This document shows positions 44,616 to 55,150 of a DNA stretch of 64,000 nt, piece after piece. Source of the DNA: an uncultured Pseudomonadota bacterium (GTDB lineage: Bacteria; Pseudomonadota; Alphaproteobacteria; Rs-D84). Under the pieces are notes generated by a model. That model was not told the origin of the DNA. It did no database searches and worked only from the letters and a program-made list of their open reading frames with translations. The stretch spans positions 142,831-206,830 of the forward strand of contig CACZJK010000001.1 in the NCBI GenBank assembly GCA_902781465.1, in the 5' to 3' direction. Every line of letters begins with the position of its first letter. Positions within the stretch are counted from its first letter, which is position 1. A program made the translations under genes and the position numbers.

Positions 44616-44644
44616 TTGTGAATGTTTTTGTTTAATGTTATAAT
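44616..44644 (+). promoter_or_regulatory. Sigma70 promoter TTGTGA-17-TATAAT driving the structured leader and secreted-protein operon
   Basis: TTGTGA 44616-44621; TATAAT 44639-44644. Confidence 0.5.
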
Positions 44645-44650
44645 TTTTCC

Positions 44651-44848
44651 ATCAGGAAGAGTTTTCCTGATGGGACTCAAAACCCTTGCCAACGAGTTGT
44701 CCTTTGAAGGACGTAAAAGAACTCCAACTTATGGTTGGAGGGTCGTGAATATATTGAATAAGCGCGCAATTTCTCGTTGAATTGTTTTGAGCCTCCAACC
44801 GCCCGATTTTCTGGCGGTATTTTGTTGAAAGCAAACAGGGAGGAAATC
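44651..44848 (+). ncRNA. Structured 5' leader (about 200 nt) with alternative pairings, an anti-SD CCUCC element and an intrinsic terminator; candidate riboswitch/attenuator
   Basis: Hairpin CCATCAGGAA/TTCCTGATGG; long-range pairs CTCAAAAC(44676)/GTTTTGAG(44784) and CAACGAG(44690)/CTCGTTG(44773); GGTTGGAGG (44733) can pair either with CTCCAAC (44722) or with CCTCCAACC (44792), which also complements the SD AGGGAGG (44837); terminator CCGCC-cgattttct-GGCGG plus U-run at 44799-44826. Confidence 0.45.
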
Positions 44849-45547
44849 GTGAAAAAGATTTTAATAATATTATCAATGCTGTGTTTTGGTGCGTATGCTG
44901 AACAAATAACGATAAATTGGGGTGTTGATAATAAGTCTTATACAACAACAACATGTGAAATTGGTGGCGATGTCGTATTGCCAGTCGTATCAAAACGTGG
45001 CTATGTTTTTCGTGGCTGGAAAGCAGAACATTTTGATCGTGGAACGTTTGCAAATTGGACTACAGTTCCAAATATTGTTAATGGTTATGCAAGTGATTCT
45101 TATGGTAGCCAGATGCCAAAAAAGGGAGATTATATAATAATTAGTGATGCAAGTGACTATAACACAGTAAAAATTTATTCTGTGCAAGTGAATTCTCCAA
45201 GTTTTCATAAAAATTTTACAGTAACGTATCAAGGAGTTATACATGAATATAAAAACATAGAACAAGGAAACCAAGATTTTTATATTTTAGATGGTGCTAT
45301 ACGTATAACATCTACAAAAAACACATGGCGATATATAGCCGTACAAGATATTGAATATAAAAATGTTGTTTATCATAGTGGCGAGGTTTTTGTTGCGAAT
45401 AATAGCTGGTATTACGTAGATTTAACTGTAAATGCCAGTTTATATTCAGATAAAATATCTGGTACATGGAAATTCGTATATGACGGTGTATGGGAGCAAG
45501 ATGGTATATCTGGTTGGAAACCAGTCGAACAAATAATTGGTGAATAA
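44849..45547 (+). CDS. Secreted protein with Listeria-Bacteroides (Flg_new-type) repeat; GTG start after RBS AGGGAGG
   Basis: Signal peptide VKKILIILSMLCFGAYA; repeat signature ITINWGVDN...GDVVLPVVSKRGYVFRGWK. The six-frame ORF start at 44777 would run through the leader. Confidence 0.55.
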   Translation: MKKILIILSMLCFGAYAEQITINWGVDNKSYTTTTCEIGGDVVLPVVSKRGYVFRGWKAEHFDRGTFANWTTVPNIVNGYASDSYGSQMPKKGDYIIISDASDYNTVKIYSVQVNSPSFHKNFTVTYQGVIHEYKNIEQGNQDFYILDGAIRITSTKNTWRYIAVQDIEYKNVVYHSGEVFVANNSWYYVDLTVNASLYSDKISGTWKFVYDGVWEQDGISGWKPVEQIIGE

Positions 45548-46867: not shown

Positions 46868-48460
46868 ATGAATATGTATCAAGTGTTCAAGCAAGTGGCG
46901 AAAGAATCGCCAGATGCTTTGTTTCTGGTACGCGAAAAAATCACTTTCAAAAAAGCGTTATCAATGATTCATGCACGTGCAACTGCATTGCACAAGATGG
47001 GGGTGAAAAAAGGCGATGTTGTTGGTTTGTTATCGCATAATATACCTGAATTTCCATTGACTCTTTTCGCGATATGGTATTTGGGTGGAACTGTTTTGTT
47101 GCTGGATACAAATTTAACACCGTTTGAATATGACAATATGACTAAATTGGTTAAGTGTAAATTTGTATGTGCGGAAAAATCTTTTTTCTATAAAGCAAAA
47201 GGTTTCAAGTTCTTTGATATTCAAACCCCAGATGAAAAGGCTGATTCTAAATTAAAACCGGCAGAATTAGACGAAAATGATATTGCGACTTTATCATTTA
47301 CGTCTGGTTCAACTGGCAATCCAAAGGTTGTTCCGTTAACACATGGTAATTTGAAAAATTCTTCTGATTATTATGCAGATATGGGCGATTGGATTCATAA
47401 AAATGAAATAATGTATGGATTTTTACCATTGTATCATATCTTTGGTTTTGCGGCTGGTATTTTGGCACCAATGTATTTTCATATGGGAATATTATTACAA
47501 CCAACAGTCAATCCGCGTAATATCTTGGAAGATTTCAAGATTTATAAACCACATTGTATTCCTGCGGTTCCGCGCCTTTATGAAGTTTTTCGTAATAAAA
47601 TTATCGAAGGCGTCAAAGAAAAACGCATGTGGTGGTTCGTATCTTTTGTGTTAAAACATCAAAAGTTTTTACGTGCGATTGGTTTGGGCAAGTTGGTTAA
47701 AAAAGTCCAAAAGCCTTTGCGTGATATCTTTGGCGGTCGTGTGAATTTGATGATTGCCGGGGGTGCTGCGACCAAGCCAGAGGTTGAAAAATTCTATGAA
47801 TCACTGGGTATTACCTTTGTCCAAGGCTATGGTATGACAGAAACAGTAGGGCCTTTCTGTTGTTCGCGTCCATCAAAACATCGGGTGCCATTTGCATTTG
47901 GAACACCTATTGGTTGTTCTGAATGTACAATTCGTGATGCCGATGAAAAAGGTATTGGAACGCTTTGGGTTCGTGGACCAAATATCTTCAAAGGCTATCT
48001 GAATAATAAAGAAGCCAATAAAGATTCTTTTGATAAGGACGGTTGGTTTAATACGGGTGACCTTGTTTATCTGGATAAATATAATCAATATCATTTCGCC
48101 GGTCGTAAAAAACAAGTAATTGTTTTGGACAGTGGTAAAAATGTATATCCGGATGAATTAGAAGCATTGTTTATGGAAATAGATGGTGTTAAAAATGTTG
48201 CAGTCTTTGAACATAAAATCAAAGATAAAACTGTCACTTATGCTGTGTTACAAGTTGAAAAGGGTACGACACTTATAAAATTAGGTGCCCAGATTGCACT
48301 GGCTAATCGCAAGGTTGCGCCTTATAAATGGGTGACACACTTTGCAATGACAACTGATGATTTGCCTGTGACCAGTACTCAAAAGGTAAAACATCATCTT
48401 GTGCGTCAGAATTTAATTGATGGAAAATATCCGAATAATACAGAAAATATTTTAAGGTAA
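46868..48460 (+). CDS. ANL-superfamily adenylate-forming enzyme (acyl-CoA synthetase/AMP-ligase-like), paralog 1 of 3
   Basis: Motifs TSGSTGNPKVV (A3), GYGMTET (A5), GWFNTGDL (A7), GRKKQVIVLDSGKNVYPDELE (A8). Confidence 0.8.
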   Translation: MNMYQVFKQVAKESPDALFLVREKITFKKALSMIHARATALHKMGVKKGDVVGLLSHNIPEFPLTLFAIWYLGGTVLLLDTNLTPFEYDNMTKLVKCKFVCAEKSFFYKAKGFKFFDIQTPDEKADSKLKPAELDENDIATLSFTSGSTGNPKVVPLTHGNLKNSSDYYADMGDWIHKNEIMYGFLPLYHIFGFAAGILAPMYFHMGILLQPTVNPRNILEDFKIYKPHCIPAVPRLYEVFRNKIIEGVKEKRMWWFVSFVLKHQKFLRAIGLGKLVKKVQKPLRDIFGGRVNLMIAGGAATKPEVEKFYESLGITFVQGYGMTETVGPFCCSRPSKHRVPFAFGTPIGCSECTIRDADEKGIGTLWVRGPNIFKGYLNNKEANKDSFDKDGWFNTGDLVYLDKYNQYHFAGRKKQVIVLDSGKNVYPDELEALFMEIDGVKNVAVFEHKIKDKTVTYAVLQVEKGTTLIKLGAQIALANRKVAPYKWVTHFAMTTDDLPVTSTQKVKHHLVRQNLIDGKYPNNTENILR

Positions 48461-48472
48461 GGAATAGAAATT

Positions 48473-50053
48473 ATGACAATGTATGAATTACTGGAAAAAA
48501 CAGTAAAAGAAAATCCAAAGACTTTGTTTTTGGTTCGTGAAAATGTCACTTTTGCAGAATTCCCAAATTTGGTAAAAGCACGTGCGGCAACTTTACATAA
48601 TTTGGGTGTTAAACCAGGTGATGTTGTCGGTTTGCTTTCGCATAATATACCTGAATTTGTATCAACATTGTTCGCAATATGGTATCTGGGCGGAACAGTT
48701 TTATTGTTGGATACAAATCTGGCATCTGCGGAATATGAAAATATGACAGAACGCGTTGGTTGTAAATTTGTATGTGCGGAAAAATCTTTTTTCTATGAAA
48801 CAAAAAAATTTAAGTTCTTTGATATTCAAACGAAAGATAAAGGTGTTGACGAATCTTTGAAGCCATATCCATTAAAAGACAGCGATATCGCAACTTTGTC
48901 TTTTACTTCTGGTTCAACAGGAACACCAAAAGTTGTGCCACTGACACATTTTAATTTAGTTTCTTGTTCTGATAATTTGGAATATTTGAATCAATGGTTA
49001 AAACCTGGTGAAATGTTCTATGCGTTTTTACCGCTTTACCATGTGTTTGGATTTGCAGTTGGTTTCTTGGCACCACTTCATTTCGGTATGGGAATATTAT
49101 TGCAATCAACCATCAATCCAAATGCGATTATGGCAGACTTTGCACAATATAAGCCTCAGGTTATACCGGCTGTGCCAAAGTTATGGGAAATATTCCGTAA
49201 AAAGATTATCGAAGGTATCAAAGCCAAAAAGAAATGGGGATTGGTATCTTTCATTATGAACAATCAAAAAATGTTGCGCATGCTTGGTTTGTCGAAATTG
49301 GTCGATAAAGTCTTGAACCAAATTCGCGGTATTTTTGGTGGTCGTGCAAGATTGTTGGTTGCCGGTGGTGCCGCCACAAAACCGGAAGTCGAAAAGTTTT
49401 ATACTCAACTTGGTATGGCTTTCGTTCAAGGTTATGGTATGACAGAAACCGTTGGGCCAATCTGTTGTTCAAGACCGCTTAAAAAACGTGTTGCGTATGC
49501 TTTTGGTGCACCAATGGGCGATAACGAAGTTCAAATCCGTAATAAAGATGAAAATGGTATCGGTATGTTATGGGTCAAAGGCAACCAAATCTTTGGCGGC
49601 TATATGAATAATGATGCGGCCAACAAAGAATCTTTTGATAAAGAAGGTTGGTTCTGCACAGGTGATTTGGTTTGGATGGATAAAAATGGCGAATTGCATT
49701 TTGCTGGTCGTAAAAAACAAGTAATTGTTTTGGACAGTGGTAAAAATGTATATCCTGATGAACTGGAAGGCTTGTTTATCGAAATCGAAGGTGTAAAAAG
49801 TGTTGCCGTATTTGAACATGAAGTAAATGGAAAAACTGTTGCATACGGAGTATTCAGCGTTGAACCAGATATGACAATGGATAAATTAGCAGCCGCCATC
49901 ACAGAAAAAAATAAAAAAGTTGCGTCATATAAATGGGTGACACACTTTGCGATGACAACAGACGATTTGCCTGTGACCAGTACACAAAAAATAAAACACC
50001 ATGTTGTTCGTCAATGGTTGATTGATGGTAAATACACAGACAGACATGAGTAA
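48473..50053 (+). CDS. ANL-superfamily adenylate-forming enzyme, paralog 2 of 3
   Basis: Same motif set; about two-thirds identical to paralog 1 by eye; shares identical DNA stretches (for example GTAATTGTTTTGGACAGTGGTAAAAATGTATATCC). Confidence 0.8.
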   Translation: MTMYELLEKTVKENPKTLFLVRENVTFAEFPNLVKARAATLHNLGVKPGDVVGLLSHNIPEFVSTLFAIWYLGGTVLLLDTNLASAEYENMTERVGCKFVCAEKSFFYETKKFKFFDIQTKDKGVDESLKPYPLKDSDIATLSFTSGSTGTPKVVPLTHFNLVSCSDNLEYLNQWLKPGEMFYAFLPLYHVFGFAVGFLAPLHFGMGILLQSTINPNAIMADFAQYKPQVIPAVPKLWEIFRKKIIEGIKAKKKWGLVSFIMNNQKMLRMLGLSKLVDKVLNQIRGIFGGRARLLVAGGAATKPEVEKFYTQLGMAFVQGYGMTETVGPICCSRPLKKRVAYAFGAPMGDNEVQIRNKDENGIGMLWVKGNQIFGGYMNNDAANKESFDKEGWFCTGDLVWMDKNGELHFAGRKKQVIVLDSGKNVYPDELEGLFIEIEGVKSVAVFEHEVNGKTVAYGVFSVEPDMTMDKLAAAITEKNKKVASYKWVTHFAMTTDDLPVTSTQKIKHHVVRQWLIDGKYTDRHE

Positions 50054-50087
50054 GTTTTAACAAAAAGATATAAAGGTAGGTATTAAA

Positions 50088-51668
50088 ATGAATATGTATC
50101 AAAAATTAGAAAATGCAGTTGCACAATGGCCTGAAAATTTATTTTTGGTTCGTGAAAATGTCACTTATTCTCAATTCTTGGAACAAGTGCGCGCACGTGC
50201 TGCAACTTTGAACAAGGCCGGTGTGAAACACGGTGATGTTATTGGGGTATTGTCACATAATTTGCCACAATTTCCATTAACTCTGTTCGCGATTTGGTAT
50301 TTGGGTGCAACAGCATTGATGTTGGATACAAATCTTACACCATTGGAATACGATAAAATGTGTGAAATTGCAGGTTGTAAATTTGTTTGTGCAGAACCTT
50401 CGTTCTTTTACAAGACGAAGCAATTTAAATTCTATGACATCACAAAGAAAGACGGTGCAATCGATTATGATTTAAGACCTTATCCATCTGAATCAACAGA
50501 TGTTGCAACAATGTCTTTCACATCAGGATCAACAGGAACACCAAAAGTTGTGCCATTAACACATTTTAATTTAACAGAATGTGCAAATTCTTTGGAAGAT
50601 ATGTCAGATTATTTCCATTCAGGTGATGTTATGTATGGATTTTTACCATTGTATCATATCTTTGGTTTTGCGATTGGTATTTTGGCAACTGTTCATTATG
50701 GGGCATCATTGGTTTTGCAACCAACAGTCAATCCTAAATACATTTTGGACGATTTCAAGAAATTCCAACCTCACGTTATACCGGCTGTGCCACGTGTTTG
50801 GGAATTGTTCCGTAATAAAATTGTCACAACAATGAAAGAACAAGGCAAATGGCGCGTTGCATCTTTTATTTTAAGAAATCAAAAAACATTGAAAGATATG
50901 GGTTTGGAATTTTTTGTTCGCAAAGTTCAAGAACCAATTTTAAGTGTTTTTGGTGGACGCGCTAAATTATTGATTGCCGGTGGCGCTGCGACCAAACCAG
51001 AGGTTGAAAATTTCTATGAATCTTTGGGTATGGCATTTATCCAGGGTTATGGTTTAACAGAAACTGTTGGGCCAATCTGTATTTCAAAACCAACAAATAA
51101 AAGATTGGCTTATTCGATTGGCGCCACAACATCTAACAATGAATTCCAAATTCGTGATAAAGACGAAAATGGTGTTGGAACATTATGGTTGCGTGGACAT
51201 CAGGTATTTAACGGCTATCTGAATAATCCAGAAGTTAACGCCGAAGTTTTTGATCAAGATGGTTGGTTTAACACTGGCGATATGATGTACACGGATAAAA
51301 ATGGTGAATTACATTTTGCCGGCCGTAAAAAACAAGTAATTGTTTTGGACAGTGGTAAAAATGTATATCCTGATGAATTGGAAGGTTTGTTTATCGAAAT
51401 ACCTGGCGTTAAAAATGTAGCAGTCTTTGAACACAAAGTAGGTGATAAAACTGTTGCCTATGGCGTATTCAGTGTCGATAAAGAAATGACAATTGATAAA
51501 TTGGCCAAAGAAATTGCAGAACAAAATAAAAAGGTTGCATCTTATAAATGGGTGACCCATTTTGCGATGACAACAGAAGATTTACCAATGACCAGCACAC
51601 AAAAGGTTAAACACCACGTTGTGCGCAAGAATTTGATTGATGGTAAATATCCAGACAGAAAAGAATAA
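50088..51668 (+). CDS. ANL-superfamily adenylate-forming enzyme, paralog 3 of 3
   Basis: Same motif set; tandem with paralogs 1 and 2. Confidence 0.8.
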   Translation: MNMYQKLENAVAQWPENLFLVRENVTYSQFLEQVRARAATLNKAGVKHGDVIGVLSHNLPQFPLTLFAIWYLGATALMLDTNLTPLEYDKMCEIAGCKFVCAEPSFFYKTKQFKFYDITKKDGAIDYDLRPYPSESTDVATMSFTSGSTGTPKVVPLTHFNLTECANSLEDMSDYFHSGDVMYGFLPLYHIFGFAIGILATVHYGASLVLQPTVNPKYILDDFKKFQPHVIPAVPRVWELFRNKIVTTMKEQGKWRVASFILRNQKTLKDMGLEFFVRKVQEPILSVFGGRAKLLIAGGAATKPEVENFYESLGMAFIQGYGLTETVGPICISKPTNKRLAYSIGATTSNNEFQIRDKDENGVGTLWLRGHQVFNGYLNNPEVNAEVFDQDGWFNTGDMMYTDKNGELHFAGRKKQVIVLDSGKNVYPDELEGLFIEIPGVKNVAVFEHKVGDKTVAYGVFSVDKEMTIDKLAKEIAEQNKKVASYKWVTHFAMTTEDLPMTSTQKVKHHVVRKNLIDGKYPDRKE

Positions 51669-53162: not shown

Positions 53163-54458
53163 ATGGAAAATAACGATAATATTTTTGCTCTGTCTTCTGC
53201 ACCTGGGAAATCAGGTGTTGCCGTCGTTCGTATCAGCGGTGGCGATTTGGGCGATTTATTTAAACGTATTATAGATAAAAAAGAATTTGAATCGCGTCAT
53301 GCTTATTTTACCAACTTTCGCGACAACAACGGCGAATTGATAGACCAATGTATCGCAATATTTTTTGCTGCGCCGAATTCTTTTACAGGTGAAGATATTA
53401 TTGAAATTCATTCGCATGGTGCGATGGCTGTTATAAATAAAATATTTGATTTCTTGCGCGAACATAATTGTCGTATTGCAACACGTGGCGAATTTTCAAG
53501 ACGCGCTTTCTATAACAATAAAATGGATTTGGCTGATGTAGATGGTTTGATTGCTTTGTTGGATGCGCAAACAGATAAACAGCGTGCAATCGCGTTAAAA
53601 TCTTTAACTGGGAAGGATTCAAAAATCTATCAAAATTGGCGCGAACAAATGATTGAAATATCGGCCTATGCGGCGGCTATTCTGGATTATGATTCTGACG
53701 ATTTGCCGGCAAATATTGATAAAAAGATTTTATCGCAAGCACAAAATTTATTGGATGAAATAAAAACATCTATGTCTGGATATCGTGCAACACGCGCAAT
53801 TCAAAATGGTTTTAATATAGTGTTGGTTGGTGAAACTAATGTTGGTAAATCATCTATATTTAATAAACTGGTTGGGTCAAATCGTGCGATAGTGTCAAGT
53901 ATCGCTGGCACAACACGCGATGTGGTGTCGCAACAAATTGATATAGATGGATATTTGGTGAATCTATCTGATACAGCCGGTATAAGGGATGCATCTGATA
54001 CAATTGAAAAAATAGGTATCGAACGCACCCAGGCCGAGGCTGATAAAGCAGACCTGATTATCCATGTATATAATGAATTGCCAGAAATAATAAACGAAAA
54101 TGAAATTACAGTTATAAATAAATCTGATTTATTAAAAGACAAATCAAATAAAAATGTAATTTATACATCCGTAAAAAATAATGATGGTTTTGATATATTG
54201 TTAAACACAATCAAAACGAAAATGCATGAATTGATGGGTGGTTCTGAATCACGTATAGCAATCAATGAACGCACATACGAATTATTAAATGAAACAGTTT
54301 TTGAATTAGACACCGCAATAAAAAATTATGATGGTAATTATGATATATTCGCAGAACACGTTAGACGCGGCGGTGATTCAATCGGGAAAATATTAGGTGT
54401 CATAACAACAAATGAAATCGCCGACGCCACTTTTTCAAGGTTGTGTTTGGGAAAATAA
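53163..54458 (+). CDS. mnmE: tRNA modification GTPase MnmE
   Basis: G-domain GETNVGKSS, DTAGIR; C-terminal C(L)GK motif; stop/start overlap with ruvA (TAAATG). Confidence 0.9.
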   Translation: MENNDNIFALSSAPGKSGVAVVRISGGDLGDLFKRIIDKKEFESRHAYFTNFRDNNGELIDQCIAIFFAAPNSFTGEDIIEIHSHGAMAVINKIFDFLREHNCRIATRGEFSRRAFYNNKMDLADVDGLIALLDAQTDKQRAIALKSLTGKDSKIYQNWREQMIEISAYAAAILDYDSDDLPANIDKKILSQAQNLLDEIKTSMSGYRATRAIQNGFNIVLVGETNVGKSSIFNKLVGSNRAIVSSIAGTTRDVVSQQIDIDGYLVNLSDTAGIRDASDTIEKIGIERTQAEADKADLIIHVYNELPEIINENEITVINKSDLLKDKSNKNVIYTSVKNNDGFDILLNTIKTKMHELMGGSESRIAINERTYELLNETVFELDTAIKNYDGNYDIFAEHVRRGGDSIGKILGVITTNEIADATFSRLCLGK

Positions 54459-54464
54459 AAAAAC

Positions 54465-54488
54465 ACCGGCATTTGCCGGTTTTTATGT
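54465..54488 (+). terminator. Terminator hairpin ACCGGCATTTGCCGGT plus T-run (after mnmE)
   Basis: Read directly. Confidence 0.6.
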
Positions 54489-54517
54489 TTGATTTTTTGG
54501 ATAATCCTATTTATAAT
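54489..54517 (+). promoter_or_regulatory. Sigma70 promoter TTGATT-17-TATAAT for structured leader B
   Basis: TTGATT 54489-54494; TATAAT 54512-54517. Confidence 0.5.
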
Positions 54518-54523
54518 AACGCA

Positions 54524-54725
54524 TGAATCCGATGGGAATTGGGTTTGGGATTTAGAACATCCCATAGTAGTGCGGTGCATAAAGCATCGTAATCTGTTTA
54601 TGGTGCTTTTGTGCCATATCCCTGACTTATATGGTCGGGGTGCCACTTTGGTGGAGCATTCACTACTATGCTGTTCTAACCCCCGACCGCTTATTTTTTG
54701 GCGGTCTTTGTTTTTTATAAAAAAC
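54524..54725 (+). ncRNA. Structured leader B (about 200 nt): long interrupted closing helix, internal hairpins, antiterminator/terminator alternative; candidate transcriptional riboswitch
   Basis: TTAGAACA(54552)/TGTTCTAA(54672) and CATAGTAGTG(54563)/CACTACTATG(54661) form an 18-bp interrupted helix around about 90 nt; GGTCGGGG (54633) complements CCCCGACC (54681), which overlaps terminator stem GACCGC/GCGGTC (54685-54706) plus U-run; the ORF RBS follows at 54726. Confidence 0.45.
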
Positions 54726-54735
54726 AAGGAACGAT

Positions 54736-55110
54736 ATGAACAATTCAATTTTTATCAAAGGCGTTAAATTTCAAAGAACAACGCCAAAAGCAATAAGAAA
54801 AGATATTTCGTCAAATATATTATTTTTTATGATATCACAATCTGGCGCAATTGACAGGCGCGGAACAATCTATTTCTTTACACCAACCGGTGCTTACTTT
54901 ATGGAACGGGAAGATTATACAGCCGAATTCAAAGATGAACTTTTTCTGTTTGCCTCTGAATGGAATTTAGTAAATGCATATTTTTGTGATTTTTTGATTA
55001 TAAGACCAGATATTTATGATTCTTTTGTTCGTGAATTATGCGCACGAAATCAACCTTACTTTTGGTTTGATACAGCAATAGAAGTTTATGGAACTAAATA
55101 TTGTGATTAA
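54736..55110 (+). CDS. Hypothetical protein (124 aa) downstream of leader B
   Basis: RBS AAGGA then ATG; no recognisable motif. Confidence 0.5.
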   Translation: MNNSIFIKGVKFQRTTPKAIRKDISSNILFFMISQSGAIDRRGTIYFFTPTGAYFMEREDYTAEFKDELFLFASEWNLVNAYFCDFLIIRPDIYDSFVRELCARNQPYFWFDTAIEVYGTKYCD

Positions 55111-55115
55111 AAAAA

Positions 55116-55135
55116 ACACCGGCAAATGCCGGTGT
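55116..55135 (+). terminator. Terminator hairpin ACACCGGCAAATGCCGGTGT plus T-run
   Basis: Read directly. Confidence 0.6.
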
Positions 55136-55150
55136 TTTTGATATTGTTTT

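Follow-up and report, generated by a model that had tools for sequence, protein, structure and literature searches.

Relationship to known leader RNAs

Riboswitches of the SAM-I (S-box, RF00162) type have a promoter-proximal leader with a multi-hairpin junction closed by a long P1 helix, GNRA-capped helices, an intrinsic terminator directly before the ribosome-binding site (RBS), and an antiterminator built from part of the P1 3′ strand together with the 5′ arm of the terminator. All of these features recur in element B (also referred to as leader B), a predicted leader RNA upstream of an open reading frame (ORF) of 124 amino acids (aa) in a 64,000-nucleotide (nt) stretch of contig CACZJK010000001.1 (assembly GCA_902781465.1, positions 142,831 to 206,830), hereafter the window, from an uncultured alphaproteobacterium. 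From sequence comparison we propose that element B is a cis-acting two-state transcription attenuator, one of a family of ~185–235-nt leaders in Candidatus Enterousia (Rs-D84). The probability that we attach to this reading is about 0.55, roughly half of which falls to a true small-molecule riboswitch.

In architecture and logic, P1-closed four-way-junction transcriptional riboswitches such as SAM-I are the described systems closest to element B, but membership of SAM-I fails because there is no match to the model, in sequence or in structure. There are further differences: for the other strand of its antiterminator, element B uses no separate segment but the 3′ arm of P3, one of the inner hairpins; P1 has an additional competitor in a local hairpin; the whole is preceded by a 5′ hairpin, P0; and there are few conserved junction nucleotides and only orphan genes downstream. 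The parts of the element are as follows.

54489–54517, + strand: sigma-70-type promoter TTGATT-17-TATAAT, 10 of 12 consensus matches; the block is kept in all homologous loci
~54523–54525, + strand: predicted transcription start, from the promoter
54525–54546, + strand: P0, 5′-terminal 9-bp hairpin with a GGGA (GNRA-type) loop; helix 1, 98.8% paired
54547–54563, + strand: G1 (GGG, 5′ strand of the P1 base) and P1a 5′ strand, UUAGAACA; alternatively the local hairpin GGGAU-UUAGAAC-AUCCC, which excludes P1
54552–54559 with 54672–54679, + strand: P1a of the closing helix, TTAGAACA with TGTTCTAA
54563–54572 with 54661–54670, + strand: P1b of the closing helix, CATAGTAGTG with CACTACTATG
54573–54589, + strand: P2 hairpin CGGUGC-AUAAA-GCAUCG; helix 4, 98.8% paired, double changes in 5 of 6 pairs
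54599–54618, + strand: P2b, optional hairpin UAUGGUGC-UUUU-GUGCCAUA (DNA TATGGTGC/GTGCCATA), present in some subtypes and absent from others
54620–54627 with 54633–54640, + strand: P3 hairpin (DNA CCCTGACT/GGTCGGGG), C1 CCCUGACU with G2 GGUCGGGG; helix 5
54643–54654, + strand: P4 hairpin CCAC-UUUG-GUGG; helix 6, much longer in other subtypes
54661–54670, 54672–54679 and 54682–54684, + strand: 3′ strands of the closing helix (P1b, P1a and P1 base CCC), from fold and alignment
54681–54688, + strand: C2, CCCCGACC; runs from the 3′ strand of the P1 base into the terminator stem, of which it takes up the first 4 nt; as the 3′ strand of the antiterminator it pairs with G2
54685–54716, + strand: intrinsic terminator GACCGC(U)-loop-(G)GCGGUC, then UUUGUUUUUU; helix 7, with the GACCGC-N10-GCGGTC stem at 54685–54706
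54726–54731, + strand: RBS AAGGAA, followed by ATG at 54736 and the 124-aa ORF to 55110

The promoter, closing helix, inner hairpins, complementary segments, terminator and RBS that were named in an initial annotation, made from the letters of the window alone, were all recovered at their coordinates. As RNA, the interrupted closing helix pairs UUAGAACA...CAUAGUAGUG with CACUACUAUG...UGUUCUAA. The segment G2 has a double role, as the 3′ arm of P3 and as the 5′ strand of the antiterminator; in the DNA, GGTCGGGG (54633–54640) is complementary to CCCCGACC (54681–54688), and the latter overlaps the 5′ arm of the terminator. The placement of the terminator next to the RBS also held, with the ORF starting ~20 nt downstream in element B and no promoter fitting between the two. 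Among homologues the P2 loop is often GNRA, and a conserved junction U..A lies 3′ of P2.

Two other interpretations of the 5′ end were considered and rejected. The commonest pair at one position of the P0 stem in the alignment is U-G, so P0 is conserved as RNA and not as a DNA palindrome or operator, in which that pair would be a mismatch. A leader-peptide attenuator has a sole candidate start codon, located in P0 at the predicted 5′ end, with no RBS, and among homologues this codon varies between AUG, GUG, UUG, CUG, ACG and GCG.

A check against Rfam, proposed in the initial annotation, matched no known family in the element. With gathering thresholds, the Rfam 15 matches in the window are limited to four tRNAs; when the cutoff is relaxed to E ≤ 10, there is nothing inside 54518–54714 except weak terminator-like noise. 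Family members in three of the loci fetched from relatives (L027, L031 and L032; L-numbers are labels of these loci) gave tRNAs only at gathering level and no match to the RNA, and ARAGORN found no transfer-messenger RNA (tmRNA). These null results reject 6S, signal recognition particle RNA, tmRNA, T-box, SAM-I, the PyrR site and all other known families, and searches of the available literature on Enterousia and on riboswitches in Rs-D84 found no description of the RNA. The sequence evidence strongly supports a previously uncatalogued structured RNA family of a known general kind, the terminator/antiterminator leader.

The long closing stem had earlier suggested a 6S-like fold as an alternative. 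Element B is indeed similar in length (~190 nt) to 6S RNA (RF00013), in which the 5′ and 3′ ends are likewise paired in a long helix, but it has no RF00013 match at E ≤ 10 and its fold, a multi-way junction, lacks the rod shape and the central bubble. It is moreover multi-copy and tied to downstream ORFs, with a terminator and then an ORF behind it. We regard a 6S-like or other known housekeeping RNA as having a negligible chance of being correct.

Fold stability and covariation

The predicted fold of the + strand has an energy of −87.1 kcal/mol, compared with −52.1 ± 4.4 kcal/mol for dinucleotide shuffles (z = −7.97), and 0 of 200 shuffles is as good. The weaker fold of the − strand (−58.2 kcal/mol; z = −4.8) is expected because the RNA relies on G-U pairs.

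Thirty loci with homologues of the 124-aa ORF were fetched, which together contain 23 distinct RNA sequences. The RNA is present upstream of the ORF homologue at every locus with enough upstream DNA, and single-sequence minimum free energy (MFE) predictions give a common architecture in 22 of the 23: P0, a three-part closing helix (P1 base, P1a and P1b), P2, an optional P2b, P3, a P4 of variable size, and a terminator that directly adjoins the P1 base. The consensus from RNAalifold has 44 pairs, with compensatory changes in 22. A covariance model, R1, was built from the B-type RNAs (seed alignment A4) and sequences were realigned to it. In alignment A6 (26 sequences) 97.0% of cells are paired, and double changes are seen in 28 of 50 pairs with a covariation score of 0.481, against 0.085 for the best control in which partners were slid. 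Alignment A7 (28 sequences, including leader A, described below) also has 97.0% of cells paired, with double changes in 35 of 50 pairs and a score of 0.526 against 0.088. For either alignment, sliding the partners by 1–3 columns lowers pairing to 33–50%, and 0 of 500 shuffles reach the observed score. Compensatory double changes occur at every pair of P1b and at most pairs of P1a, with 2–6 pair types each.

The pairing, the double changes and the variety of pairs in P1a and P1b establish the structure to the extent that sequence comparison can do so. The comparative alignment upstream of the ORF homologues that the initial annotation had suggested thus finds the RNA kept with strong covariation, and the P1-enclosed multi-hairpin core that it described is borne out by the shuffle test on the + strand and by the pairing in A7. 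These results support a transcribed, strand-specific structured RNA with a multi-hairpin core enclosed by P1.

Two sequences have 5′ and 3′ P1 strands that mismatch, probably as a result of tandem copies collapsed in assembly. One of these (L023) was left out of seed A4 and of A7 and is still a row in A6; the other (L025:1-160) lies outside the seed alignment and the conservation tally and is still a row in both A6 and A7. Unpaired nucleotides that are conserved across the family are J2/3 U..A, J3/4 G and J4/1 GG-R-R, about 8 positions.

Alternative pairings

The antiterminator was scored by analysis of duplexes in each sequence separately; the subtypes differ by an insertion or deletion in the G-run, and a column-wise count is thus unsuitable. 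A G2:C2 duplex of 8–10 bp, with energies of −17 to −22 kcal/mol, is present in 26 of 27 copies, and overlaps the 5′ arm of the terminator. The G2 and C2 segments of the subtypes are listed here.

Type I (window): GGUCGGGG / CCCCGACC, 8 bp
Type II: GGUCGGGUG / CGCCCGACC, 9 bp
Type III: GGUUGGGGAG / CUCCCCGACC, 10 bp
Leader A: GGUUGGAGG / CCUCCAACC, 9 bp

The cognate G2/C2 combination is the best in three of five variants (types II, III and leader A, each of which beats the non-cognate combinations) and equal-best in a fourth. In types II, III and leader A—three of the four subtypes—the duplex includes 1–2 bp beyond the pairing that is explained by P3 and P1, involving nucleotides that are unpaired in the terminator state, and in the sequences compared this extra complementarity is explained by antiterminator pairing only. 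C2 and the terminator GACC hardly vary, in contrast to the freely varying P1a and P1b beside them, a pattern typical of a segment that pairs with several partners. The competing antiterminator proposed for the window is in this way matched across the family by segments that change in concert from subtype to subtype.

The second alternative pairing, a local hairpin that does not figure in the initial annotation, joins G1 to the CCC of the internal loop between P1a and P1b, with the 5′ strand of P1a as its loop. It is predicted in 20 of 21 distinct variants and takes the compensatory forms GGGAU/AUCCC, GGGCU/AGCCC, GGGU/ACCC and GGACU/AGUCC. The CCC of its 3′ strand is conserved family-wide, yet is unpaired in the terminator state. 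For the nascent transcript, folds in which the antiterminator is enforced lie only 3–10 kcal/mol above the MFE, and it is in these folds that the local hairpin appears spontaneously.

Because the antiterminator and the local hairpin are both conserved with compensatory changes, we conclude that the RNA has two mutually exclusive structures, one of which removes the terminator. In silico, therefore, the leader includes an expression platform whose terminator and antiterminator exclude each other. The state with P1, P3 and the terminator (state 1) is the more stable in silico in every case.

The sequence around the terminator and RBS has some additional properties. At 54702–54733 the terminator 3′ arm and U-tract, CGGUCUUUGUUUUUUA, are 88% complementary to the neighboring A-tract and RBS, UAAAAAACAAGGAACG, and homologues read by eye likewise have a U-tract and then an A-tract. 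The sequence of the P3 3′ arm recurs as the RBS, GGUUGGGG, in several loci. There may be an extra translational layer at the terminator and RBS.

Leader A and other family members

A second leader in the window was suspected at the outset of belonging to the same uncharacterised class as element B.

44643–44827, + strand: leader A RNA, a diverged family member, with promoter TTGTGA-17-TATAAT at 44616–44644

Leader A lies upstream of genes for secreted Flg_new-like proteins, the first of which starts with GTG at 44849. Model R1 matches it over its full length with 47.4 bits (E ~1e-11) and all helices aligned, whereas the best unrelated match is ≤17.6 bits in the whole 64-kb window with filters off, and the best match in 297 kb of viral DNA picked for the same terminator pattern is ≤17.3 bits. 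Since R1 finds leader A and further copies, leaders A and B belong to one multi-copy family, and the sequence match supports their assignment to the same uncatalogued RNA class.

Related genomes vary at the site of leader A. One (L031) has, after addB in the orthologous position, a 131-bit member before a homologous protein with a signal peptide and Flg_new-like sequence; in two others (L032 and L033) neither the RNA nor the secreted genes are present there. L032 has a 138-bit member elsewhere, before a 373-aa ORF without a Pfam match, beside a tRNA-Tyr gene with a repeated 3′ end. In this region (L032 6350–6960, − strand), tRNA-Gly and tRNA-Tyr come first, the 3′ end of tRNA-Tyr then recurs twice in partial form (ggtctcacccgctcccaccaaaa), and the RNA copy and the 373-aa orphan ORF follow; the region looks like the remnant of an integration site. 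The family thus has four downstream contexts: the 124-aa ORF, Flg_new-like secreted proteins, the 373-aa ORF, and another copy of the RNA.

In all loci the terminator ends 20–30 nt before the start codon, leaving no room for a promoter, and the RNA and ORF stay linked while the flanks change (mnmE and yebC upstream; secB, AMP-binding genes and ompH downstream). Comparison with plasmid and phage records by blastn found no similar DNA, and a scan of viral contigs for the terminator pattern gave 31 loci, of which 0 are family members.

A proposed two-state attenuator

In the OFF state that we propose (state 1), the P1 base, P1a and P1b would close a junction made up of P2, P3, P4 and, where present, P2b; the C-rich C2 would pair with G1 at the P1 base, the adjoining terminator hairpin would form, and RNA polymerase would release an RNA of ~190 nt. 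In the ON state (state 2), G1 and the P1a 5′ strand would be held in the local hairpin and P3 would open, allowing G2 to pair with C2 and the first 4 nt of the terminator stem over 8–10 bp; the terminator would be blocked and transcription would enter the promoterless ORF ~20 nt downstream. An effector acting on the stability of the P1/junction fold would set the ratio of the two states: one that stabilises P1 and the junction would turn the gene off, and one that traps the P1 5′ strand or opens P3 would turn it on. While the two helix sets, the structure, the genomic arrangement and the kinship of leaders A and B can be read from the aligned sequences, we infer that switching takes place in vivo, in which direction it runs, and what kind of effector drives it; this may be a small molecule or a protein.

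In a more specific version, which we hold only tentatively, the RNA would be a riboswitch of a new class that senses a metabolite or signal and is confined to the reduced-genome gut lineage Rs-D84 (Candidatus Enterousia). It would work by a four-segment strand swap—G1:C2 and C1:G2 in one state, the G1 local hairpin and G2:C2 in the other—and control, as a small regulon, genes for orphan proteins and for surface or secreted proteins specific to the lineage. The initial annotation had described the geometry of element B as that of a transcriptional riboswitch; of this, the architecture and the two-state platform stand in silico, but the small-molecule effector does not follow from them, given the few conserved unpaired nucleotides.

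Several observations weigh against an attenuator. The unpaired nucleotides conserved across the family are fewer than in most metabolite aptamers, and the downstream genes (124-aa ORF, Flg_new-like and 373-aa ORF) give no metabolic clue. The terminator may simply be constitutive, a possibility raised by the greater predicted stability of state 1 in every case. All of the sequences come from metagenome assemblies. Among them, one locus (L002) has a second pair of RNA and ORF paralogues in which the RNA (758–952, − strand) has a degenerate antiterminator and terminator; with mismatches in each of P3, the antiterminator and the terminator (GGGCGGGG; CCCCGACGAC...GUGGUC), it may be a decaying copy or one that is constitutively read through. 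Finally, two loci have diverged tandem RNA copies before a single ORF (L027, 271–458 and 500–696; L025, 1–160 and 202–398), each copy with a promoter and a terminator, and no ORF directly follows the upstream copy. Such promoter-bearing tandem copies are a hint, from their arrangement, of a role for the terminated RNA itself. The few conserved junction nucleotides, the uninformative genes, state 1 as the ground state and this possible role of the RNA are the reasons that the probability of an attenuator is put at no higher than the value given above.

The tandem copies bear most directly on a serious rival, which we consider possible if on balance doubtful, in which the ~190-nt terminated RNA is itself the product, either a stable small RNA (sRNA) or an RNA with a protein partner, that is transcribed from a strong promoter of its own and acts in trans or sequesters a factor (possibly the 124-aa protein). 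A constitutively leaky terminator would then give the downstream gene a low, fixed ratio of co-expression. Riboswitch-derived or multi-copy sRNAs are represented by SreA/SreB of Listeria and by the tandem AbcR1/2 of Alphaproteobacteria; as with these, a terminated leader could act in trans, and there are diverged tandem copies with their own promoter and terminator, but there is no similarity to them in sequence or model. Every copy of the RNA has its own promoter, protective 5′ hairpin and terminator, there are several copies per genome, the first copy of a tandem is followed by an RNA gene and not an ORF, state 1 is the MFE structure in all members, and the ORF RBS GGUUGGGG has, in several loci, complements in the C-rich CCCCGACC and CCCCAACC, all of which would suit an sRNA. 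The antiterminator and the local hairpin are nevertheless conserved with compensatory changes though they destroy the fold of such a product, the ORFs always begin 20–30 nt past the terminator without a promoter of their own, and the RNA is found before unrelated genes, as for a cis-regulator; on these points the attenuator is the reading that we prefer.

The downstream ORF and its lineage

Homologues of the 124-aa ORF form 39 clusters with 57–100% identity, from which we conclude that it is a real conserved protein. All are from uncultured gut or rumen Alphaproteobacteria named Candidatus Enterousia. The ORF has no Pfam, NCBIfam or PADLOC match, and AlphaFold gives a confident model of its protein, for which no matching fold was found. 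Among 1.84 billion representative proteins, a profile search gave only 11 relatives at E ≤ 0.001, and in three of these (P0164, P0166 and P0169) the 124-aa domain is fused C-terminally to DUF192 (PF02643), which is itself uncharacterised. One of the DUF192 fusion proteins is 820 aa long with a weak FtsK/SpoIIIE-like N-terminus.

One function considered for the protein is that of an RNA-binding terminator or antiterminator factor, PyrR- or HutP-like, that would autoregulate its own synthesis through leader B and control the leader A-type copies. The PyrR-pyr, HutP-hut and BglG/LicT ribonucleic antiterminator systems resemble element B in their terminator/antiterminator (and anti-antiterminator) logic and in having one type of leader repeated before several genes, one of which may encode the regulator, but there is no match to RF00515 or similar models and the structured part of element B is much larger. 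The B-type RNA and ORF are inseparable, including in the duplicated pair of L002, other copies stand before other genes as in a small regulon, and the conserved nucleotides are mostly in helices and loops and not in a junction pocket, all of which would suit such a factor. However, the 124-aa protein is slightly acidic overall by residue count and has no recognisable RNA-binding domain, and the domain has only 11 matches, of which the three with the DUF192 fusion carry no RNA-related hint. We consider this reading unlikely.

Genomic surroundings

Two palindromic terminator hairpins of 31 nt, 87–90% identical to one another (AAAAAACACCGGCA[TTT/AAT]GCCGGT...), are located at 54457–54487 and 55110–55140 and flank the RNA and ORF exactly, which gives the module a cassette-like look. 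In relatives the module is found in other neighborhoods, or is absent between yebC and secB (L032).

This arrangement recalls type III toxin-antitoxin modules (ToxIN, CptIN and TenpIN), which encode an antitoxin RNA and, beyond a terminator, a toxin protein. Element B has the same order of promoter, non-coding RNA, Rho-independent terminator and small ORF, and the module is cassette-like and duplicated, with varying genomic contexts and near-identical flanking hairpins. In contrast to these modules, however, the RNA has no tandem repeats (0 rows from Tandem Repeats Finder at a minimum score of 30), comparisons by PADLOC, Pfam and fold show no similarity of the ORF to ToxN, AbiQ, CptN or TenpN, and the same RNA precedes the secreted proteins and the 373-aa ORF. 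A module of this type is highly improbable here.

Other features of the neighborhood include three tandem paralogous AMP-binding (acyl-CoA-synthetase-like) genes of 526–530 aa at 46868–51668 of the window, an array that is kept in related genomes while its neighbors are rearranged. A conserved hairpin-like non-coding element (…GUUGUCGGCGCG…CUACACUGCACUUGUCGACAAC…) lies just 3′ of yebC in two of the fetched loci (L002 ~1000–1090, − strand, and L027 ~120–200), and is not present in that form 3′ of yebC in the window.

Significance

Beyond what was first described for the window, sequence comparison adds a covarying local hairpin that competes with P1, family members before unrelated genes, and tandem copies. 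Candidatus Enterousia (order Rs-D84) are uncultured bacteria with genomes of <1 Mb (PMC12306168). A multi-copy RNA of ~200 nt is likely to be important to them because such small genomes keep little non-coding DNA. A well-supported new RNA family, absent from Rfam 15 and with two conserved alternative folds, makes a clean candidate for an orphan riboswitch or attenuator. The identity of its effector would reveal a signal that these host-dependent bacteria monitor, and would be the first functional handle on the orphan genes that follow it, those encoding the 124-aa, Flg_new-like secreted, and 373-aa proteins.

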